Virus record (IMG/VR): IMGVR_UViG_3300032893_000056
Location: 1-56,411 of that record
Strand: one strand, 5' to 3'
From: a virus
Lineage: Duplodnaviria > Caudoviricetes
Length of the DNA: 56,411 nt
The notes under the pieces were generated by a model that was not told the origin of the DNA, did no database searches, and was given only the letters and a program-made list of their open reading frames with translations. How positions within the stretch are numbered: the first letter of the stretch is position 1; the number at the start of each line of letters is the position of its first letter. Position numbers and translations under genes: made by a program. Positions 6,607-33,063 of the stretch are shown in pieces.

Positions 6607-7170
6607 TCAGAAGGGGATATCCTCAGCGATGTCTTCAATGAGCCCAGAGTCTGTAGCAATCTTCGAAAAAGCTTCAGTATCAGTACCAAAAACGTACGAC
6701 TCAAGCTGCTTAGCCAGACCAATGATTTCCTCCGCTTTAAGAACGTTCTTGTCCGTCTTCAGGGCCGCTACCGCTGTGCTCAGGCTGCTCTGGCGGATGA
6801 TGTACACTTGCTTCTTGGCTCGCTCCTCCGGAGTCTCCCAACCACCTTTTGAAGTGGCAGTCGATGCATGAGGTGAGCCCGGCGCCGATTTCGAAACCTG
6901 TCCCCCCGCAGCGGGAGCACTCCCCTTCACTGCCTTTACCCAATCGTTGTACCCCTTATCGTTCTTGACGACTTCAATCTCATACACATCCGACGGCTTG
7001 GCTGACTGCATCGTGATTGCAGTATCCTTCCCTGCACCAAACGGCATCAGCTTCTTGGACTCCACCTTCCCGTTAAACGACAGATTCTTGTAGGCAACTT
7101 CCACAACTTGGTACGGACCCTTGGCACCTTGAACGGTATCCGTGGTAGCACTCAGAACTTGAATTTGCAA
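6607..7170 (-). CDS. Probable single-stranded DNA-binding protein
   Basis: Beta-rich N-terminus, G/S/A linker, acidic tail ending EDIPF, located beside the polymerase; AAGGAG RBS with TTG start. Confidence 0.6.
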   Translation of the reverse strand: MQIQVLSATTDTVQGAKGPYQVVEVAYKNLSFNGKVESKKLMPFGAGKDTAITMQSAKPSDVYEIEVVKNDKGYNDWVKAVKGSAPAAGGQVSKSAPGSPHASTATSKGGWETPEERAKKQVYIIRQSSLSTAVAALKTDKNVLKAEEIIGLAKQLESYVFGTDTEAFSKIATDSGLIEDIAEDIPF

Positions 7171-7196
7171 AACGCTCTCCTTAGTTGATATGATAT

Positions 7197-7225
7197 ATCT
7201 TATATTAGATTGTTACGAAAAGCAA
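7197..7225 (-). promoter_or_regulatory. Putative sigma70 promoter for the SSB
   Basis: TTGCTT-17bp-TAAGAT in an AT-rich gap. Confidence 0.5.
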
Positions 7226-7944
7226 GCATCTCGTGTAATTTTTTCCATGTTCTTGAGATCCATGCCGAACTTCACCTCACAGTCGAGGGGAACGACCCAC
7301 TCGTAACCGAAACATCTCTTGATGTTGGCGATCAGATCATCGAACACTTCGTAAAACAAGCGTGCGATCTGGGAAATATACTGAGCCTCCGCATCGATCA
7401 CAATCGAATCGTGTACGGTGGAAACAACCAAGGCTGGGATTCCACTTGATTTCAGTCGCCGGAAGAAGCTGATCCGGGCAATCATCATAACATCCGCACC
7501 TGTGCCCTGCACCGGGTAGTTCGTCAGAGTTGTCCATGGTATCTTTATCTCTCCCGATGGGCTACGACCAAGGTTGATGATCCACTGCCTTCCACTCGGA
7601 CCCTCCAATGGCCTTCCGGCAACGACACTGTTGCACCATTGTTTGTGGCACTTATCGATTCCGGAATACTTGGAGTAGAACTTTTCTCCGATTCCATCCC
7701 AGAACTTTGGATCGTTAGAGACGTGAGTAAAGGCTGGATCGTGCGCAAATGACCAACCACTTCCTCGATAGATTGTGCGGAAGAGATAGATCTTTGCAAT
7801 GAGGCGAGAAGGCAGATCAAATGATGCTTGGTTGAGACTATGTGTATCCGCTCCTGCAAGGACTTCAGCAATTCCTGTTGAGTCACGACTCATCTCCAGT
7901 AGTACGCGCCACTCAAGCTGGCTTGCGTCCGCTTGTATTAGCAA
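7213..7944 (-). CDS. Family A DNA polymerase, C-terminal part (palm/fingers)
   Basis: Motif A ADASQLEWR, motif B RLIAKIYLFRTIY, NYPVQGTGAD, motif C TVHDSI. Confidence 0.9.
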   Translation of the reverse strand: MLIQADASQLEWRVLLEMSRDSTGIAEVLAGADTHSLNQASFDLPSRLIAKIYLFRTIYRGSGWSFAHDPAFTHVSNDPKFWDGIGEKFYSKYSGIDKCHKQWCNSVVAGRPLEGPSGRQWIINLGRSPSGEIKIPWTTLTNYPVQGTGADVMMIARISFFRRLKSSGIPALVVSTVHDSIVIDAEAQYISQIARLFYEVFDDLIANIKRCFGYEWVVPLDCEVKFGMDLKNMEKITRDACFS

Positions 7945-8133: not shown

Positions 8134-8264
8134 GTGGTGATCTCCGCATTTTGTTCATTAAGATTTTGAATCATCGCCAACAGATTGGTAATGTCCGCCT
8201 GATAGGCAGCCAATTGCTGTTGGTTATTCTGAAGGAGTTGTTGTAGTACTTGTTGAATTGTCAA
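8109..8264 (-). CDS. Small Q-rich coiled-coil protein between the polymerase halves (51 aa)
   Basis: Read manually: GAGG, TTG start overlapping the pol stop; MTIQQVLQQLLQNNQQQLAAYQADI... Confidence 0.55.
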   Translation of the reverse strand: MTIQQVLQQLLQNNQQQLAAYQADITNLLAMIQNLNEQNAEITTWLAANPG

Positions 8265-9397
8265 TCGTTATACCTCGAAATGAAAAGGTCGTTTGCTTCA
8301 CTATCTAGATTCTGGAGATTCGGGCCACTGGAACTGAGACGCCCGGTGGCTACGGTCACTTGATTAAATTGGCCGTGGAGATATCCCGGTTCCCAATTCT
8401 GTTCCGCTGCTTTCTTGACCAGTCCTTCATATGTCTTGGACAACAGAGTCTCCAGTCGTGTTTGCTTTTGGATAAGCTCGATAATCCTCCGAGTCTTTCG
8501 TGATGGTTTCAGCTTCAGTAGGGTATCAGCATTGGTAGCGAAGTACCCCTCCTTCTTAAGTGCTGACCCACGGAGAGGTTCAACCAGCCGAGGCAATTGG
8601 TGCTCTACTTTATTTACTTTGAAGCGAGGTTCACCAATTCGTTTGCCTGACTTGTAATAACCGATACACTCCCTTACTTCTTCAACAATCGTCCCACCGT
8701 AAAGAAAGGCAGACAGATGGTCCCCAGAAGAGAAGTTAATAGGCACATCAGGATAAACTCCGTGAAGTTCGTTGGTGATTTCTGATATCTCGTTTTTAAT
8801 CTCCTCAGCACGGCTCCTACAGAGTTCCTCATTATACCTGATGCCGTTCCACTCCATCTCCTCCAGTACCAACAGGTCCAAACACATCAGCCGCACTAGT
8901 CGCTTTGATGTTGGCGGCATATGTTCCATCTGGTTGTAGTACAAATTCAAGGTTTGTTGGGCATCCGTGGATGCATAGGATGAAAGTATCTCCCACGGAA
9001 TATCCTCCGTCTGAATTCCCTTCGCCCAATACTCCTTCGCCACTACGTCTTCCTTGTGTCCAAGCCCATATTTGACTAAAGACTCCTCCAGTGAGGGATA
9101 CTTCCATGTTTGATTGCTCCTTACAAATTCAGCTAGCTGGCAGTCCCAGACTCGTTTGTCCCCCCACTCGACTCCAAGTTTTCTAAGGACGTGTGCATCA
9201 TATTTGAAATTGAAACCAACGAGAAGGTCAGCTTGTCTAATTCGTTCTGCAAGTTCCGCAAGACTATCCGGGCTTGTCTTAACTGCTCCTGCACCACTTT
9301 GATCTGCCCAACTCCAGCATACATTTTTGAATCGTCGATCAAATGGGGCCCCAACATTATAGGTATTATTTTCCGTATCCAAAGCTAGAACTTTCAA
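8261..9397 (-). CDS. Family A DNA polymerase, N-terminal part (3'-5' exonuclease + thumb)
   Basis: ExoI LDTE, ExoII GFNFKYD, ExoIII YASTD, EMEWNG, ATGRLSSSGPNLQN; GGAGG then TTG overlapping the HNH stop. Confidence 0.9.
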   Translation of the reverse strand: MKVLALDTENNTYNVGAPFDRRFKNVCWSWADQSGAGAVKTSPDSLAELAERIRQADLLVGFNFKYDAHVLRKLGVEWGDKRVWDCQLAEFVRSNQTWKYPSLEESLVKYGLGHKEDVVAKEYWAKGIQTEDIPWEILSSYASTDAQQTLNLYYNQMEHMPPTSKRLVRLMCLDLLVLEEMEWNGIRYNEELCRSRAEEIKNEISEITNELHGVYPDVPINFSSGDHLSAFLYGGTIVEEVRECIGYYKSGKRIGEPRFKVNKVEHQLPRLVEPLRGSALKKEGYFATNADTLLKLKPSRKTRRIIELIQKQTRLETLLSKTYEGLVKKAAEQNWEPGYLHGQFNQVTVATGRLSSSGPNLQNLDSEANDLFISRYND

Positions 9398-9822
9398 ATA
9401 CGCCTCCAAGATTTTCGGAGTTTGATAGCACTAACATTGGCTTTGGTAATTCCATACTCTTTGGCAATCTCCAATTGTGGTCGAACATCCTCACGTATCC
9501 GCAGTACCTGTTCTGCCGTTAACTTTGGTGTTCCATTTCGAGCTGCCCTCCCTTTACGTACCATATCCTCCATATTGTCTTTGTGTGTTCCTATGAACAA
9601 ATGAGCAATCTCATAACACGCGGGATTATCACAATGATGGCAAATTTTCATGCCTGTTGGAATAGGTCCGTTATATTTCATCCACTCCAATCTATGAACT
9701 CCTTGTGGACGACCCTCATATTGTTTCATTCCATAGCCGTCTTTGTCCTTATATCCCGCCCATTCTTTACACGGAACTGTATTCCACGTGTTATTCTCGG
9801 TATCGATCGCTAATACGTTCAC
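9394..9822 (-). CDS. HNH homing endonuclease with C-terminal HTH
   Basis: C.EW.G..DKDGYG..VHRL..ICHHCDNPAC..HLFIGT..DN..D..KGR; KLT..V..IR..LEIAKEYGI. Confidence 0.88.
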   Translation of the reverse strand: MNVLAIDTENNTWNTVPCKEWAGYKDKDGYGMKQYEGRPQGVHRLEWMKYNGPIPTGMKICHHCDNPACYEIAHLFIGTHKDNMEDMVRKGRAARNGTPKLTAEQVLRIREDVRPQLEIAKEYGITKANVSAIKLRKSWRRI

Positions 9823-26918: not shown

Positions 26919-27083
26919 TTATTCCTCAAAAACCGACAAGGTAAAGGGGATTTGGAACTCAATTAAGGTATTAATGTAATCATGCATACCCTCTGTCTCA
27001 CTAGCTGCGGATAGATAGAACGCAACTACCTGTGAAACCCCCTCTTGCGTAAACCTAACTTCGGCGATCCATTCCTTAGACAT
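26919..27083 (-). CDS. Small hypothetical protein (54 aa)
   Basis: Read manually: MSKEWIAEVRFTQEG... Confidence 0.5.
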   Translation of the reverse strand: MSKEWIAEVRFTQEGVSQVVAFYLSAASETEGMHDYINTLIEFQIPFTLSVFEE

Positions 27084-27268
27084 AATGGTTACCCCTTAAT
27101 CCAATAGTAAAGAGCGATTGCTCCCGTAGCGACACCTGAGACAACTACGCGAACGATATCCATCAATATTTCCCCTTGCTGTCATTACGCTGTTTTTCGG
27201 CTTTATCCGCTGCATCCATTACCGTACCATACACCCAAATAGCAATGGGAAGAATGAAAAACATCAAG

Positions 27269-27490
27269 TCATACATAATCCCATCCTTTGTAGTCTTTTG
27301 CGATTTGTTCGGCTTCACCAATAGCCTTGTCAAAACAGGCTTGACACCCGTGGCTCTCAATCCATCCGCCCCCATTCCACACGTAGCGGGAACGCTTCTT
27401 AACATCCTCCTCTTTTACAAAGGTGTTACAGATTGGGCAGGGAACAGCGGTTGTTACCTGAAAGTGATAGCTCGGACGATAGCGGGACAT
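27269..27490 (-). CDS. Small Zn-ribbon protein
   Basis: CPIC...HGCQAC; GAGGAG RBS. Confidence 0.6.
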   Translation of the reverse strand: MSRYRPSYHFQVTTAVPCPICNTFVKEEDVKKRSRYVWNGGGWIESHGCQACFDKAIGEAEQIAKDYKGWDYV

Positions 27491-27493
27491 AGC

Positions 27494-27697
27494 TTAATGC
27501 TCCTCAATGAGACAACCGATGGTACGCATTCCGGCTTGTTCGAATGATTGACCGTTAGCAAACCGATAGGCATTCCACCATGCAGCGTTTGAACGCCGGG
27601 ACAGATCAGCGAACGGCTTTACAAGGTTACCGAAGTCATCCACTACGGAATGCCAATCGACGTCAACCGGGACATACTTGAAGTGAGTAAGGATCAT
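27494..27697 (-). CDS. First early gene, hypothetical
   Basis: AGGAGG RBS; promoter just upstream. Confidence 0.65.
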   Translation of the reverse strand: MILTHFKYVPVDVDWHSVVDDFGNLVKPFADLSRRSNAAWWNAYRFANGQSFEQAGMRTIGCLIEEH

Positions 27698-27722
27698 ATA
27701 CCCTCCTGTTGAACATGACTAC

Positions 27723-27732
27723 ATCTTAGCAC
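27723..27732 (-). promoter_or_regulatory. Extended -10 early promoter
   Basis: TG-c-TAAGAT ~25 nt upstream of the first early gene. Confidence 0.5.
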
Positions 27733-27836
27733 AAATACAGGGAAGTGCATCAGGGAATACCCTAGGATTGGGTTAGTTTGAACATGCAAACTCGGGTGTT
27801 ATGGGTCTGACGAGCACCTATGGACGGATGAGCTAA

Positions 27837-27878
27837 CTCATTGATTATCATTCTCAGCTCGTAATAACAATCATTCTC
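27837..27878. promoter_or_regulatory. Two tandem Fur-box-like sequences
   Basis: ctcattgattatcattctc (13/19) and cgtaataacaatcattctc (14/19) vs GATAATGATAATCATTATC. Confidence 0.4.
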
Positions 27879-28112
27879 ATCTAGCGCACCCTCTTTTTCT
27901 TCTTAAAAATACCATCTCTTTGAAGGGGGGATGGGGGGAAAACCCGAAGGCTCGAAAAGCTCGAAAGGATGGATGCTACATTTTTATATATTTTTGAAAG
28001 GAGGGGATGTCTTAGTATTTACCCTTAGTTATCTATTCTTTACCCACTGAGGAGCTCGGATCAAAAAACCGATCCTCGCAAGCTCGAAGAGCTAATACTA
28101 AAACCTTCAAAC

Positions 28113-28177
28113 AGAAAGAAGAAACAGAAGTTGTAGTTTTTTTTAATTTAAACTACTTCTTCTGTAAAGAAGAAAGA
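28113..28177 (-). other. Mirror-repeat-flanked hairpin element, copy 2
   Basis: agaaagaagaaa (28113-24) / aaagaagaaaga (28166-77) exact mirror around the cagaag-tt-gtagttt..aaactac-tt-cttctg stem. Confidence 0.8.
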
Positions 28178-28184
28178 ACTTATA

Positions 28185-28213
28185 ATGGTATATATTCTTA
28201 ATGCATTTGTCAA
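28185..28213 (-). promoter_or_regulatory. sigma70 promoter P2
   Basis: TTGACA-aatgcattaagaatata(17)-TACCAT. Confidence 0.8.
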
Positions 28214-28261
28214 GTACTTTTTGTACTTTTGTAGAAATATTTGTGTTTGTAAAGAAAAAGC

Positions 28262-28290
28262 TTGACAAATCGATCAAGATAGTATATAAT
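28262..28290 (+). promoter_or_regulatory. Consensus sigma70 promoter P3 for the morphogenesis arm
   Basis: TTGACA-aatcgatcaagatagta(17)-TATAAT. Confidence 0.9.
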
Positions 28291-28337
28291 ATACATCTGT
28301 TGTAGAAAAGTTGTTGACAAACTGTCTCAACTATGTT

Positions 28338-28395
28338 AAAGGAGGTGATCCTTTATCTCGTCCAGCAGGGGGCGGACGTTAAGCTAAACCCCTGG
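28338..28395 (+). ncRNA. Putative structured RNA: 16S-tail complement + H-type pseudoknot
   Basis: AAAGGAGGTGATCC; stems CGTCC/GGACG and CAGGGG/CCCCTG; no start codon at SD spacing. Confidence 0.45.
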
Positions 28396-28420
28396 CCTAA
28401 CAATCCCCAGGAACCCAGAG

Positions 28421-29014
28421 ATGCTTTCAGACAAAGTTAAAAATCAGTACATGCCGACCAGAAAGCGGCGTCCTGATGGGGAAGCTGGATTCCGTCGTCG
28501 ATTCAGTGATTCCCAAAAAATTGAAGCAGTAACGACCTACTTGATGCTTGGCAGCCTAACACTTGTTTCATCGGTGCTCAAGATCAACATCAATACCCTT
28601 AAGCTCTGGAAAAAGAGTGAATGGTGGAAAGAGGTCGAGCGAGATCTTCGTACTCAGCAAGATCTTCAACTATCCAAACGTCTCCAGAATATTGTTACCA
28701 GATCTCTGGATGTGATTGAAGATCGGATGGAGCGGGGAGATTTTGTATATGACCAAAAGACCGGTCAGATGCGACGTAAACCGGTAAACATGCGAGATGC
28801 AGCCAAAGTAATGATGGATCTCAACGAAAGGGCCGAGACTCTGGTTGACCGTCACATCCAAAATGAAAGTATCTCGACAGACAAAGTTGAACAGACACTC
28901 AAGAATCTTGCTGATGAATTCGCAAGAATCGCAAACCAAGTTACCTCCAAATCAGCAGTTGAGGTTACTGATGTACTTTTCGGAGACGATACCCGTGCCA
29001 AGGATGAAACCTAA
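28421..29014 (+). CDS. Terminase small subunit (probable)
   Basis: N-terminal HTH (SDSQKIEAV..Y..LG....V...L.I..NTL..WK..WW); first gene of the packaging module. Confidence 0.7.
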   Translation: MLSDKVKNQYMPTRKRRPDGEAGFRRRFSDSQKIEAVTTYLMLGSLTLVSSVLKININTLKLWKKSEWWKEVERDLRTQQDLQLSKRLQNIVTRSLDVIEDRMERGDFVYDQKTGQMRRKPVNMRDAAKVMMDLNERAETLVDRHIQNESISTDKVEQTLKNLADEFARIANQVTSKSAVEVTDVLFGDDTRAKDET

Positions 29015-29252
29015 TGGAGAGCGAGACTACTCCTACGATACCCACTACGAAGCCAGTGCTGCCCAGCGAAAGCACCGATCTGAGCGCGTATTGGCCCGAA
29101 GGGAAATGGCCAAAGAAGGGAAGGTTCACAAAGGTGATAATAAGGATGTTGATCACAAGCGCTCGCTATCTAATGGCGGGTCAAACGATCGATCAAATAT
29201 GCGTGTCACGAGTGCTCACTTTAACCGCTCCCGGAAGAACAAAGACAAATGA
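28995..29252 (+). CDS. Small HNH endonuclease
   Basis: RDY..R..R..ARR..G...KGD.KDVDHK..LS.GGSN..SN.RV.S...NRS. Confidence 0.8.
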   Translation: MPRMKPNGERDYSYDTHYEASAAQRKHRSERVLARREMAKEGKVHKGDNKDVDHKRSLSNGGSNDRSNMRVTSAHFNRSRKNKDK

Positions 29253-30766
29253 TCTTGACAGCAGATGTAGTGTCAGGGTTTGTCGGAAGTGTCCTTGCTC
29301 CGAAGTTTGAAGATAGTTGTGCCTCGCCAGCATTCCACCATGAAATGTGGGAGTATTGCTGCTCTAAGAATCGCTACATTGCTATCGCTGCACCTCGGGG
29401 TCATGCGAAAACAACAGCAGTAACTCTTGGATACGGGTTGTCGTGTTTGCTGTTTCGAGAACGAAAATTCATGTTGTTGGTCTCTAACACGGAAGCACAA
29501 TCAGCACTATTTCTCGGAAATATCAAGCAACAACTTACAACTAACGAAACTCTGATTGACCTGTTCGGGATTAAACGACAACCTGATGGAAAGGTCAAAT
29601 TCATAAAAGATAGCGAAACAGACATCATCGTAGAGATGGATGACGGACATCAGTTCCGGATTATCGCTAAAGGTAGTGAACAAAAAGTTCGTGGTACCAC
29701 TTGGGGAACTGCTCGACCAGATCTGATTATTTGTGATGATATGGAAAATGATGAGCAGGTTATGTCCAAAGATCGTCGAGAAAAGTTCAAACGATGGTTC
29801 ACAGGCGCTTTGATTCCCTGTATGTCAGACAAAGGTATCATTCGAATGGTTGGCACCATCCTCCACATGGATAGTATGCTGGAGAATCTGATGCCTAAAC
29901 CCTACGATAAGAACACAATAACACTGCCTCTCAAGGAATACAGTCGTAAACCTATGAAGTGGGTGTCGATTAAGTACCGAGCCCATACAGACGATTTTAA
30001 GCAGCTTCTATGGCCTGAAAAGAAGTCAGCGGAGGATTTCCGAATTGAACGTGCTGATGCATTTGCCAATGGTCTTCAAGACGTTTATAGTCAGGAATAT
30101 CTTAATATTCCGATTGATGAATCGAGTACCTACTTCCGAAGAGCAGATTTTCGACCAATGGCAGAAGCAGACTTCTCGAAACCGGTACGCTTTTATATCA
30201 CCTGCGACTTGGCAATTTCCGATAAAGAGTATGCCGACTATTCTGTGTTTGTAGTTGGATCTGTCGATGAAGACAAGATTCTCAGTATTCGGAATGTGAT
30301 CCGGGAACGGATGGATGGTCGAGAGATTGTCGATACGATTCTAGCATTGCAACGGATGTACAAACCTGAAGCAATCGGTATTGAAGAAATGCAAGTATCC
30401 AAAGCAATTGGACCATTCCTTCGAGAAGAGATGGTCAAGCACAATAACTTCATCTCTCTGTATCCTCTGAAGCATGGTGGTAAGGATAAACTGACTCGCA
30501 GCCGTTCCATTCAAGCACGTATGCGTGCTCACGGATGTAAGTTCGATAAGTCGGGGGACTGGTATCCTCTCTTTGAAGAAGAGTGTATGCGATTCCCTAG
30601 GGATAAGCATGATGACCAGGTAGATGCTTTTGCTTATCTTGGTATGATGCTTGATGTGATTATCGAAGCACCTACGGTAGAAGATCTTGAAGAAGATGAA
30701 TATCAACGCGAACTAGAAGAATCCGGATTGGGTGATTCTGGTCGTAACGAGATAACGGGATATTGA
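29249..30766 (+). CDS. terL: Terminase large subunit
   Basis: APRGHAKT Walker A, ICDDME Walker B, GTILH, QEY.N.P, nuclease CDLA, DYS, HDDQVDA. Confidence 0.93.
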   Translation: MILTADVVSGFVGSVLAPKFEDSCASPAFHHEMWEYCCSKNRYIAIAAPRGHAKTTAVTLGYGLSCLLFRERKFMLLVSNTEAQSALFLGNIKQQLTTNETLIDLFGIKRQPDGKVKFIKDSETDIIVEMDDGHQFRIIAKGSEQKVRGTTWGTARPDLIICDDMENDEQVMSKDRREKFKRWFTGALIPCMSDKGIIRMVGTILHMDSMLENLMPKPYDKNTITLPLKEYSRKPMKWVSIKYRAHTDDFKQLLWPEKKSAEDFRIERADAFANGLQDVYSQEYLNIPIDESSTYFRRADFRPMAEADFSKPVRFYITCDLAISDKEYADYSVFVVGSVDEDKILSIRNVIRERMDGREIVDTILALQRMYKPEAIGIEEMQVSKAIGPFLREEMVKHNNFISLYPLKHGGKDKLTRSRSIQARMRAHGCKFDKSGDWYPLFEEECMRFPRDKHDDQVDAFAYLGMMLDVIIEAPTVEDLEEDEYQRELEESGLGDSGRNEITGY

Positions 30767-33063
30767 TGGCGATCAACAACACTCCTGGAAGTGCCCTCCA
30801 GGCTATGCAAGCGGGCGCACAACAGCCTGCTGACGGTGGACAAGGGGGTGGTATGGGTCAGGGCTTCGATCCCAACCAAGACCCGTATAACCTCGCTGCT
30901 GTGGGTCAGATGGCAGGCCAACAACAACAGCAGATGAATCAGATGCCCCAAGGAGGTCCCGAACAACCGGATATCCAGCACCCAGATTATCAGCATCCTA
31001 GCCAAAAACTTCGTGGTTTCATCGAAGAAGTCAACATCGCTGAGCATTTGGATGACGATAAGCTCAAGAAAATTGGATATGATTGTGCGGAAGGTTTTGA
31101 AACTGATCTAATGTCTCGGGAAGTTTGGGAACGGAAGTGTGATGAATATACGAAACTGGCTCTCCAAATTCAAGACCAAAAAGCCTACCCATGGCCAAAG
31201 GCCAGTAATGTTAAATATCCTCTTCTATCTACTGCTGCTATGCAGTTTGCTGCACGGGCTTATCCAACTCTGGTTCCTTCAGATGGTAAAGTGGTTCTTG
31301 GGCAAGTAATCGGTAAAGATCCAGACGATTCAAAGCAAGAACAAGCTGAGCGTATCTCAACCTATATGTCTTATGACATTATGCATCAGATGACGGGTTG
31401 GGAAGAAGACATGGACAAACTTTTGATCATGCTTCCAATTGTTGGGATCATGTTCAAAAAGACTTATTGGGACCCGATTAAGAAGAAAAACTGTAGTCAT
31501 CTGCTTTTGCCAAAGAGTGTTGTGGTCAATTATTGGGCCACGAATATGTGTGATACGGAACGGATCAGTGAGATCATTCCCATGTCTAAGCGTATTCTCA
31601 AACAGAAGCAAATGAGTAAACTGTATCTAGATTGTGATCTTGGGGCTCCTCCTAGCATTCCTTTTGAGTTCCATCCACGCCAGACGGATTGGATGCCTTC
31701 AAATGATGATACGACACCTTATGAGATCATCGAGCAACATTGTTATCTAGATCTGGATGAGGATGACTATGCTGAACCGTACATTGTTACGTTTCATCGA
31801 CAATCTCGAAAGGTTCTCCGGATTACTGCACGGTATGATGAGAGCACTATTCTATTTAATGATGATGGTACTCTTGCTGGTATTGAGCCCATTCATTACT
31901 ATACTAAGTTTGGCTTTATTCCTAGCCCTGATGGTAGTTTCTACGATATTGGGTTTGGGATGCTTCTGGGTCCTCTCAATGAATCGGTCAATACACTCAT
32001 TAACCAGTTGGTTGATGCAGGTACACTGAATAACCTTCAAGCTGGCTTTATTGGGAAGGGCCTTCGACTTCGTATGGGCGATATGCGCTTCATGCCCGGC
32101 CAATGGCAAGCAGTGAATGCAGTAGGCGATGATCTCAAGAAGCAGATTTTCCCACTTCCTACTAAAGAACCGAGTCCGGTTCTGTTCCAATTGATGGGAA
32201 CTCTGATCACTTCGGGTAAGGAATTGGCCTCTGTAGCTGAAATCTTTACTGGTAAAATGCCCGGTCAGAATACTCCTGCTACGACCACGATGGCTACGGT
32301 TGAACAAGGGATGAAGGTTTTCACGGCAATTTATAAGAGAATTTATCGTGCGCTCCAAGAGGAATTTTGCAAACTCTTTAAACTCAATGCCACGTATCTT
32401 GATCCCCAAACGTACAGTTCCGTCATTAATGAACCGATTGGACCGGATGATTTCGACGAAACAACGTATCGAGTTATTCCAGCAGCGGACCCCAATGCTG
32501 TTAGCGCTCAGGAAAAACTTCAGAAAGCAGAGAGTCTGCTCCAGCTTCTTCCGATTGGTGTTCTCGATCCTGTGGCAGTTATTAAGCGTGTTCTTCAAGC
32601 TCAGGAACAGCCGAACTTCGAACAACTCCTTAATCAACAGGTACAACAGACAGGCCAAATGCCTCCACCGCCGCCTGATCCGAAGGTACAAGAACTTCAA
32701 ATGAAGCAGCAAGCTCAACAGCAAGATGCTCAATTGAAGATGACTATGGGTCAGCAACAGATGGAATTGGATGCACGAGATAAGCAACAACAGATGGCTA
32801 TGGCCGCACAAGAGCATCAACAGAAGATGCAAATGCAAGCCCAAGAAGCTCAGATGAATGCTGCTGCTCAAGCACACCAAATCCAAGCTCAGATTCAAGG
32901 TGAAAACCTGAAGATGCAGCACCAGCAACAAATGCATCACCAAGCACTACAACAGACACAAGAAACGCATAAGGCGAATCTCAAACATACCGCAGAGGTC
33001 ACAAAATCGAAAGCCGCAGCAGCCAAACACGCGCCTTCCAAGACTGGAAGCGCCAAGAAATAA
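30766..33063 (+). CDS. Portal protein (podovirus type) with Q-rich termini
   Basis: Follows TerL; PWP.ASNV..PLL..A..QF.A.AY; NQL.DAGTL.N; ATTT.A..EQG.KVF..I.KR; long C-terminal coiled coil. Confidence 0.88.
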   Translation: MAINNTPGSALQAMQAGAQQPADGGQGGGMGQGFDPNQDPYNLAAVGQMAGQQQQQMNQMPQGGPEQPDIQHPDYQHPSQKLRGFIEEVNIAEHLDDDKLKKIGYDCAEGFETDLMSREVWERKCDEYTKLALQIQDQKAYPWPKASNVKYPLLSTAAMQFAARAYPTLVPSDGKVVLGQVIGKDPDDSKQEQAERISTYMSYDIMHQMTGWEEDMDKLLIMLPIVGIMFKKTYWDPIKKKNCSHLLLPKSVVVNYWATNMCDTERISEIIPMSKRILKQKQMSKLYLDCDLGAPPSIPFEFHPRQTDWMPSNDDTTPYEIIEQHCYLDLDEDDYAEPYIVTFHRQSRKVLRITARYDESTILFNDDGTLAGIEPIHYYTKFGFIPSPDGSFYDIGFGMLLGPLNESVNTLINQLVDAGTLNNLQAGFIGKGLRLRMGDMRFMPGQWQAVNAVGDDLKKQIFPLPTKEPSPVLFQLMGTLITSGKELASVAEIFTGKMPGQNTPATTTMATVEQGMKVFTAIYKRIYRALQEEFCKLFKLNATYLDPQTYSSVINEPIGPDDFDETTYRVIPAADPNAVSAQEKLQKAESLLQLLPIGVLDPVAVIKRVLQAQEQPNFEQLLNQQVQQTGQMPPPPPDPKVQELQMKQQAQQQDAQLKMTMGQQQMELDARDKQQQMAMAAQEHQQKMQMQAQEAQMNAAAQAHQIQAQIQGENLKMQHQQQMHHQALQQTQETHKANLKHTAEVTKSKAAAAKHAPSKTGSAKK

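Follow-up and report, generated by a model that had tools for sequence, protein, structure and literature searches.

The window, by which we mean the whole 56,411-bp stretch of DNA analysed here, is a complete uncultivated virus record in which the minus strand carries the genes left of ~27,850 and the plus strand, from 28,421 on, those for packaging, head and tail. Judged by TerL, the named viruses closest to it, at only 48-55% identity, are a spring-water Caudoviricetes record and an Alcaligenes phage. Short or absent SDs are the rule for the phage's own genes. The late arm opens with a consensus promoter and a leader that contains a module of ~55 nt, followed by the first late genes:

28262..28290, plus strand: sigma-70 consensus promoter of the late arm (TTGACA-17-TATAAT, 12/12)
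28338..28351, plus strand: block 1, AAAGGAGGTGATCC, a 14-nt perfect complement of the single-stranded 3' tail of 16S rRNA
28354..28358, plus strand: after a TTT spacer, UAUCU, the single-stranded flank 5' of P1
28359..28363, plus strand: 5' strand of P1, CGUCC, pairing with 28374-28378
28366..28371, plus strand: 5' strand of S2, CAGGGG, within the P1 loop, pairing with 28389-28394
28374..28378, plus strand: 3' strand of P1, GGACG
28379..28382, plus strand: L3, UUAA, the conserved loop predicted to span the groove of P1 if the pseudoknot is H-type
28389..28394, plus strand: 3' strand of S2, CCCCUG, which closes the pseudoknot
28421..29014, plus strand: likely small terminase subunit (TerS), the first late gene, by position and a weak phrog_14025 match
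29249-30766, plus strand: TerL (phrog_38, 9e-82)
30763-33063, plus strand: portal (phrog_1216)

Two minor observations concern these genes. The portal (30763-33063) ends in a C-terminal tail of ~150 residues that is Q/A/M-rich and of low complexity. A small HNH-like ORF lies between TerS and TerL (window ~29006-29252), and its homologue in two of the loci described below (L059, at 7117-7392, and L225), assigned to phrog_4590 with a weak match to the HNH family phrog_4578, is the gene directly 5' of the module.

Every element that a preliminary description had named at this locus was confirmed in position. The 14-mer starts ~40 nt past the inferred start site of the 28262-28290 promoter, the ATG of TerS at 28421 lies 70 nt past the 14-mer, and the SD-like block has no start codon to serve, ATG, GTG and TTG being absent from 28352-28365; the sole GTG nearby (28345-28347) is internal to the 14-mer. 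Transcription would begin at ~28297, placing the module at about +41. The closing strand CCCCUG is followed by GCCUAAC, without a U-run.

Taken alone, the window proves nothing, and the case that the module exceeds chance rests on its recurrence and covariation in other phages. The window contains a single exact copy of the 14-mer, for a chance expectation of ~4e-4 copies (arithmetic over 2 x 56411 positions), and at up to 3 mismatches the count is ordinary (8 seen against 5.64 ± 2.41 expected, with 22 of 100 shuffles reaching 8). RNAfold, applied to the single window sequence, gave a stability no better than that of shuffles (z = -0.08 and -0.38). A covariance model built from 19 members of the family (R1) recovered a single copy of the module in the window. 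Separately, a second GGTGA...TATCTCG arrangement occurs at 8774-8792 on the plus strand, antisense to the ORF at 8261-9409; with neither a purine block nor a P1, and missed by R1, it was read as a chance match and not as a second module.

Searches for relatives covered viral records, metagenomes and species genomes. The blastn search of the window region against 50,697 phage records returned zero matches. The closest TerL relative with upstream sequence (locus L002, 76% identity) carries the same leader element, with loop and partner both changed (GGUGG/CCACC instead of CAGGGG/CCCCUG). A strict 18-base pattern spanning two 5' blocks retrieved six viral stretches, mostly from unrelated, AT-rich, Firmicutes-type phages, and the whole module was present in 6/6. 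With a two-block pattern that left block 1 free (TATCTCGTCC plus ACGTTAA), 60 stretches with 52 distinct sequences were retrieved; 17 of these 52 showed the covarying architecture and the remainder lay in coding-like context. A strict three-block pattern gave 13 stretches in metagenomes (the new members L126 and L129, duplicates of viral contigs and three chance matches) and only three among 185,579 species genomes, one of them real (L119, in an Anaerotignum MAG). The 3'-relaxed pattern (AGGTGATC, 2-5 nt, TATCTCG) matched at least 115 stretches and revealed a much larger family in which P1 is variable; at 15 bases, many chance matches are expected from this pattern, and about a third of the stretches look like chance.

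From these searches, an automatic filter (tail complement of at least 8 nt, UAUCU, P1 of at least three pairs closed by C-G/G-C, and either a long P1 or a helix between loop and tail) picked out 46 variants in 46 loci. This count is crude: about nine members with bulged long hairpins, recognisable by eye, escaped the filter, and two or three of those picked out may be false. Among 151 genomes of Lachnospirales, the order to which the Anaerotignum MAG belongs, R1 detected diverged copies in 5, and one unverified faecal contig also carries the module. At 56 loci of more distant TerL relatives R1 found no module, only three weak partial matches to the SD part (E 0.19-0.55), and it follows that these phages can do without it. 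Cultured-phage look-ups starting from L099, L078, L146 and L178 returned gene-level relatives only, all without the module, and 16S genes sought in the two assemblies reached via L119 and L120 were not found. Overall, the module recurs in dozens of unrelated viral contigs and in some prophages, and this recurrence is not chance; the family members are phylogenetically related in clusters, and the invariance of TATCTCG, ACGTTAA and GGTGA is imposed largely by the search patterns. The shared order is tail complement, a spacer of 2-7 nt, UAUCU, P1 closed by C-G/G-C, UUAA and the loop-pairing strand.

The pseudoknot drawn in the preliminary description stood up in relatives, where both helices keep pairing with changing sequence and covariation was found. 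R1 failed to realign the variable second helix, and covariation was scored by separate scripts and in one length-homogeneous subgroup. For the loop-tail pairing S2, the mean best-helix score of cognate loops and tails across 32 non-redundant members was 11.3, compared with 7.70 ± 0.39 when tails were permuted, and none of 5,000 permutations reached the cognate score; about 19 distinct S2 helix sequences occur across relatives. P1 is represented by 13 distinct helices, in which the first two pairs stay C-G and G-C and the remainder change jointly (CGUC/GACG, CGGA/UCCG, CGAC/GUCG, CGUGGU/ACCACG, CGGAAG/CUUCCG, CGUU/AACG, CGGGGGC/GCCCCCG). The third pair of P1 is U-A in 20, G-C in 8, A-U in 3 and U.G in 1, a count conditional on the filter, which required three pairs. 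On the 3' strand of P1, ACG is fixed by the search patterns, and the bases preceding it covary with the 5' strand. In the length-homogeneous subgroup A3 (18 portal-protease sequences), 98.6% of cells pair, versus 25-67% with slid partners, and two pairs are double-changed (C-G to U-A in three sequences and G-C to A-U in four; 7 cells), a number matched in none of 500 shuffles.

The architecture is compact. The smallest modules have a P1 of 3 bp, an L1 of 1 nt, an S2 of 5 bp and an L3 of 4 nt, and in some lineages a long hairpin, rich in G+C and capped by a UUCG loop, replaces the pseudoknot and has CGUU after it. L3 is UUAA in 35 of 47 non-redundant variants, part of the set having been found with patterns that fix TTAA; UCAA, UUAU, UCAU and UUUU occur as well. 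UAUCU was left free in one search pattern and was still present in four of the five distinct lineages which that pattern found. RNAfold also draws a hairpin, P0, between block 1 and the UAUCU flank (GAGGUGA with UUAUCUC), which is weak, contains G.U pairs and is without covariation support, its UAUCU strand being near-invariant. The module is a structured RNA with a conserved, covarying 16S-tail complement and pseudoknot.

An Rfam search, which the preliminary description had proposed as a check, yielded zero family matches. The module is not in Rfam 15: an E-value scan of 27000-29500 gave noise only (MIR162_1, FTX_3 and CC2171, whose 13-19 bits fall below the gathering scores of 55-75), no family was returned for 101 nt even with E raised to 10, and when 14 and 17 family loci were scanned at gathering thresholds the sole match was GP20-b beside the module. 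Full-text literature searches found no description of it. The module may already be listed in an IMG/VR-based catalogue from 2023, which comprises about 10,000 candidate structured RNAs of viruses (PMC10690425).

We assessed how far complementarity to the 16S tail extends across the family. The contiguous tail complement (G.U allowed) in the 24 nt upstream of two-block matches was bimodal, with at least 8 nt in 18 of 57 and at most 7 nt in 39 of 57; two-block matches in coding context have at most 7 nt. With block 1 left free, 14 of 17 structure-positive rows (13 of 16 distinct upstream blocks) carry a complement of at least 9 nt directly upstream, and two structure-positive members score low, L072 (6 nt) and L099 (5 nt). 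A complement of at least 9 nt was present in 45 of 49 distinct module blocks, versus 2.3% of 888 ORF candidate starts in the same 59 loci, none of which reached 13 nt, although this comparison is partly biased by the search patterns. The sequence GGUGAUCC is shared by 34 of 46 variants, with A or AA often coming next, so that the complement runs past what P0 would need and into AUCC (+A/AA), the would-be P0 loop. Lineages with an inserted base remain complementary on both flanks (AAGGA-A-GGUGAUC and AAGG-C-AGGUGAUC). A start-like triplet between block and P1 is present in only 1 of the 46 non-redundant variants, at an unsuitable spacing; the SD-like block, suspected from the window to be an orphan, is without a serving start codon there and in 45 of 46 non-redundant relatives. 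Together these sequence patterns are good evidence, not proof, that pairing with the rRNA tail is selected, and part of the conservation of block 1 could be intramolecular, via UAUCUC pairing.

The module occupies a wide range of late-gene junctions. By PHROG annotation, it lies between minor head and scaffold, portal and maturation protease, protease and major head, and holin and endolysin genes, as well as ahead of a portal, a tail protein and a small zinc-ribbon regulator, and after an HNH-like gene. In the clade of the window (the window, L002, L126 and L060) it sits in a 5' leader between a consensus promoter and TerS, the 28262-28290 promoter being kept in all three relatives. The preliminary description had envisaged a switch for the morphogenesis arm; in other phages the module precedes many different late genes, and a switch specific to that arm finds no support. 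Such varied downstream genes speak against a metabolite riboswitch and favour a device of general use on late polycistronic mRNA. Of 76 candidate instances, 65 have an ORF stop no more than 16 nt ahead of the purine core (43 of these 65 ORFs have at least 30 codons; 22 are shorter, some perhaps spurious), and neither the window nor L126 is among them; no ORF ends before the block in the window. The downstream gene's own RBS is 28-120 nt from the module.

Comparison with cultured phages suggests that the module is insert-like. In two cultured portal-protease relatives, Acetoanaerobium phage ANDSL2_ph1 (L253) and Paenibacillus phage Likha (L254), the two genes abut or overlap, and a plain terminator hairpin stands at the corresponding junction of Ruminococcus phage RG-TP1 and Clostridium phage phiCT9441A; the module-bearing spacer of ~70 nt therefore looks like an insertion and appears cassette-like. 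In three loci, GP20-b RNA (RF03003) stands immediately 3' of the module (L058, 1263-1326, minus strand; L061, 9489-9544, minus strand; L099, 2552-2612, plus strand), giving two structured elements in tandem within one leader before GP20-type scaffold genes. GP20-b is likewise a cis element that precedes such genes, but it is a separate RNA that adjoins the module without overlap and shares no sequence with it, and RF03003 was not found in the window. An intrinsic terminator would resemble the module as a hairpin after a stop codon, and in 10 of 47 variants the second helix leads into a U-run; however, terminators are without a conserved SD complement, UAUCU and UUAA, the other 37 variants and the window have no U-run, and no terminator-like plus-strand site was found in 27700-28600. 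With a U-run in so few variants, any terminator aspect is not general.

Several known systems hold ribosomes on mRNA without starting translation. Orphan SDs of this kind are found at a few Gram-positive genes as bare purine runs, and the SP82 polypurine stabiliser is a Gram-positive 5' mRNA stabiliser akin to STAB-SD. The aprE leader reportedly combines a stem-loop with ribosome binding in the absence of translation. In entrapment pseudoknots of the rpsO/S15 type, the SD is paired to 16S rRNA and the mRNA is kept out of the channel, leaving a docked, non-initiating 30S; this type contains the regulated gene's real SD and start codon and needs a repressor, unlike the module, which is without a start codon. 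In STAB-SD, that of cry3A, a non-initiating SD-like sequence binds the 30S and blocks RNase J1 (PMC4113751). The module resembles STAB-SD in that an untranslated region contains an SD-like stretch able to pair with the 16S 3' end (in the module, a 14-nt perfect complement) and, by sequence, in having no start codon; STAB-SD is proposed to lengthen mRNA half-life by holding a 30S against 5'-to-3' decay. STAB-SD is, however, a bare purine run of ~9 nt without a fixed partner structure, whereas the complement of the module is 13-14 nt or more and stands at a fixed short distance from a conserved UAUCU-pseudoknot-UUAA, usually after a stop codon in late operons and in phages of apparently different host groups. 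STAB-SD is the nearest precedent, and the module would be a new version of the orphan-SD stabiliser idea.

The explanation we favour, tentatively and at rather less than even confidence, is that the module is an orphan ribosome-docking site whose channel-barred fold forms a barrier or insulator for late mRNA; it is possibly a new RNA class. A free 30S, or a ribosome that has just terminated at the adjacent upstream stop, would be held by the unusually long SD:anti-SD duplex. The fold starts ~5 nt past the would-be start codon or P site, such that the mRNA could not be threaded unless the fold opens, and with no initiator codon and threading blocked the 30S would remain docked and non-initiating. 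Docked subunit and fold together would then act as a barrier or insulator on the late polycistronic mRNA, shielding the downstream segment from 5'-end-dependent decay and setting downstream expression independently of the upstream cistron; in Firmicutes-type copies with a U-run, docking may also decide if the second helix terminates. Pairing with the ribosome tail without initiation is the best-supported component of this scheme; 30S binding and all downstream consequences are inferred. Docking alone leaves the conserved UAUCU, the basal C-G/G-C pairs of P1 and UUAA unexplained, which suggests an additional partner or some tertiary fold. Hosts with RNase J are where the decay-barrier idea has its firmest basis, and the genes of the window phage itself have short SDs.

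The complement covers the whole accessible 16S tail and is joined to a conserved mini-pseudoknot, and the unit behaves as if portable across head, packaging, tail and lysis genes of many unrelated phages. If docking holds true, the module shows how phages partition expression along long late operons, and offers a compact natural part (~55 nt) with which to stabilise or insulate cistrons in engineered operons. If the invariant bases instead bind something else or catalyse cleavage, it would represent a new RNA class.

A local effect on TerS translation drew no consistent support. Masking the pseudoknot or block 1 in silico moved the accessibility of the TerS RBS from 0.53 to 0.67, 0.70 to 0.64, 0.52 to 0.70 and 0.47 to 0.40 in the four clade members. 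For a ribosome standby site, in which an unstructured or high-affinity landing place for the 30S adjoins a structured, otherwise closed RBS, the relevant observations are that this RBS is only partly paired and that its response to module state was inconsistent among them. The simple form of the unmasking idea, in which the leader acts as a translational switch, is not supported.

A more serious alternative, though one that we consider doubtful, is a conditional attenuator or factor-binding pseudoknot in which the SD-like strand pairs intramolecularly with the anti-SD-like UAUCUC(GUCC), and the balance between P0 and the pseudoknot is tipped by a small ligand, by the ribosome or by a protein of phage or host origin. 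The outcome would be termination in Firmicutes-type copies, or a changed fate of the downstream mRNA. The pairing of GAGGUGA with UUAUCUC drawn by RNAfold fits this, and where the 3' strand differs, in a single lineage (L136-L138, UACUCAC), the change adds Watson-Crick pairs with GUGA; nevertheless, two of the pairs in P0 are G.U, its outermost pair is not kept and it lacks covariation, and 16S complementarity continues into its would-be loop (AUCC, then AA). The invariant P1 flanks and UUAA recall the junction bases of aptamers. Ligand riboswitches are a poor match on other grounds: the gene-association test placed varied structural and lysis genes downstream, not ligand metabolism, and the pseudoknot riboswitches in Rfam 15 (preQ1, SAM-II/V, guanidine-III, fluoride and others) gave zero matches at E up to 10 over 101 nt. 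For termination as the output, the minority of copies with a U-run and the plain terminators at the matching place in RG-TP1 and phiCT9441A count in favour, and the U-run-free majority, which includes the window, counts against. Copies from the order Lachnospirales (L256-L261) are preceded by mini-ORFs of 7-8 codons with strong SDs of their own (MKKLLVGF, MKKLLIGF, MRKLPMGF, MIMLPMDL, MKKFVLL) that end 3-6 nt before the purine block, an arrangement comparable with leader-peptide attenuators, in which translation of a conserved short ORF from its own RBS determines the structure that follows. Moreover, the window promoter is a perfect consensus, such that late timing may need control after initiation.

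A further reading, which we regard as unlikely, is a ribosome-sensing switch. Here the 16S 3' tail would itself be the ligand: a weak default hairpin of tail complement and UAUCUC(GUCC) would give way once a 30S, or a ribosome newly released at the neighbouring stop codon, captures the complement, freeing UAUCUC(GUCC) for the pseudoknot and so deciding termination, decay or reinitiation for the late gene that follows. If true, the module would be a portable cassette that ties late-gene output to ribosome availability in many phages, and a new structured RNA class with a universal, rRNA-based effector.

It is distinctly improbable, in our estimate, that the module works without ribosomes as a processing or decay-blocking element (a self-cleaving ribozyme, a nuclease site or an exonuclease-resistant ring-like knot) that splits the late polycistronic mRNA into segments differing in stability. 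A compact pseudoknot with few invariant bases, intergenic within phage late operons, would suit such a role, as would the larger amounts in which downstream products are needed (protease after portal, scaffold after minor head, capsid after protease). The pistol ribozyme (RF02679) has stems P1-P3, a P1 loop pseudoknotted with the P2/P3 junction and a GU cleavage junction (PMC4604425), and the module bears a superficial likeness to its 5' half in the short P1 hairpin, the loop pairing with a downstream strand, the phage association and the few invariant bases. The module lacks the features that define pistol, namely stems P2 and P3 and the GU junction, however, and the Rfam pistol, hatchet, twister and hammerhead models gave nothing at E up to 10, the pistol model over 101 nt. 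Pistol is also without a 16S-tail complement, which the module has and which the processing scheme leaves unexplained.

The preliminary description also raised a trans-acting 30S sponge, a stable small RNA that titrates anti-SD tails and shifts translation away from SD-dependent host mRNAs. Full-length tail complementarity would suit a sponge, as would the short or missing SDs of the window phage's own genes and the U-run copies, which could end as discrete small RNAs. We nevertheless consider it very unlikely: the module is single-copy in the window genome and embedded in an mRNA, its stoichiometry against tens of thousands of ribosomes is implausible, and most motif-bearing Firmicutes-type phages have strong SDs on their own genes.

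A leader peptide in the window can be given almost no credence. The 35-codon ORF (28333-28440, plus strand) put forward for this role does exist, is open and overlaps the TerS start, but neither its frame nor its start is conserved: ATG 28333 is absent from L002, L126 and L060, lies only 5 nt before the SD-like block without an SD of its own, and the ORF has zero PHROG matches. The inter-block spacers vary by non-multiples of three (the inner segment is 0, 1 or 2 modulo 3 in 11, 7 and 22 of 40), which excludes coding, including by this ORF, as the source of the conservation. Readings as a promoter for a single-subunit RNA polymerase, a late-promoter DNA site, a readthrough or frameshift signal or a boxA/nut-like element were rejected on the variable spacing, the covarying pairs, the lack of a slippery site and a stop codon at least 20 nt from the fold; these rejections rely on what we take to be the usual features of such elements.

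The leftward leader of the same intergenic region holds further elements. A weaker promoter-like site (10/12) runs leftward from 28213 to 28185 between the two arms. Between this site and the first leftward genes, GCTCGAA units are repeated (27949-27968 and 28073-28092), and a terminator-like hairpin with a T-run lies in the early leader on the minus strand (28090-28073); part of this region (cctcgcaagctcgaagagc) is kept in L126. The repeats and the minus-strand hairpin may form an early-leader attenuator or a set of operators. A G-rich element, GAAGGGGGGATGGGGGGAAAACC (27921-27946), recurs near letter-for-letter in the closest relative L002 (59-82), and on the minus strand reads as a C-rich stretch in the early leader. 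Finally, a second SD-like run, AAAGGAGGGGATGT (27997-28010), differs from the 14-mer at three positions and is followed by ATG TCT TAG, a two-codon start-stop.
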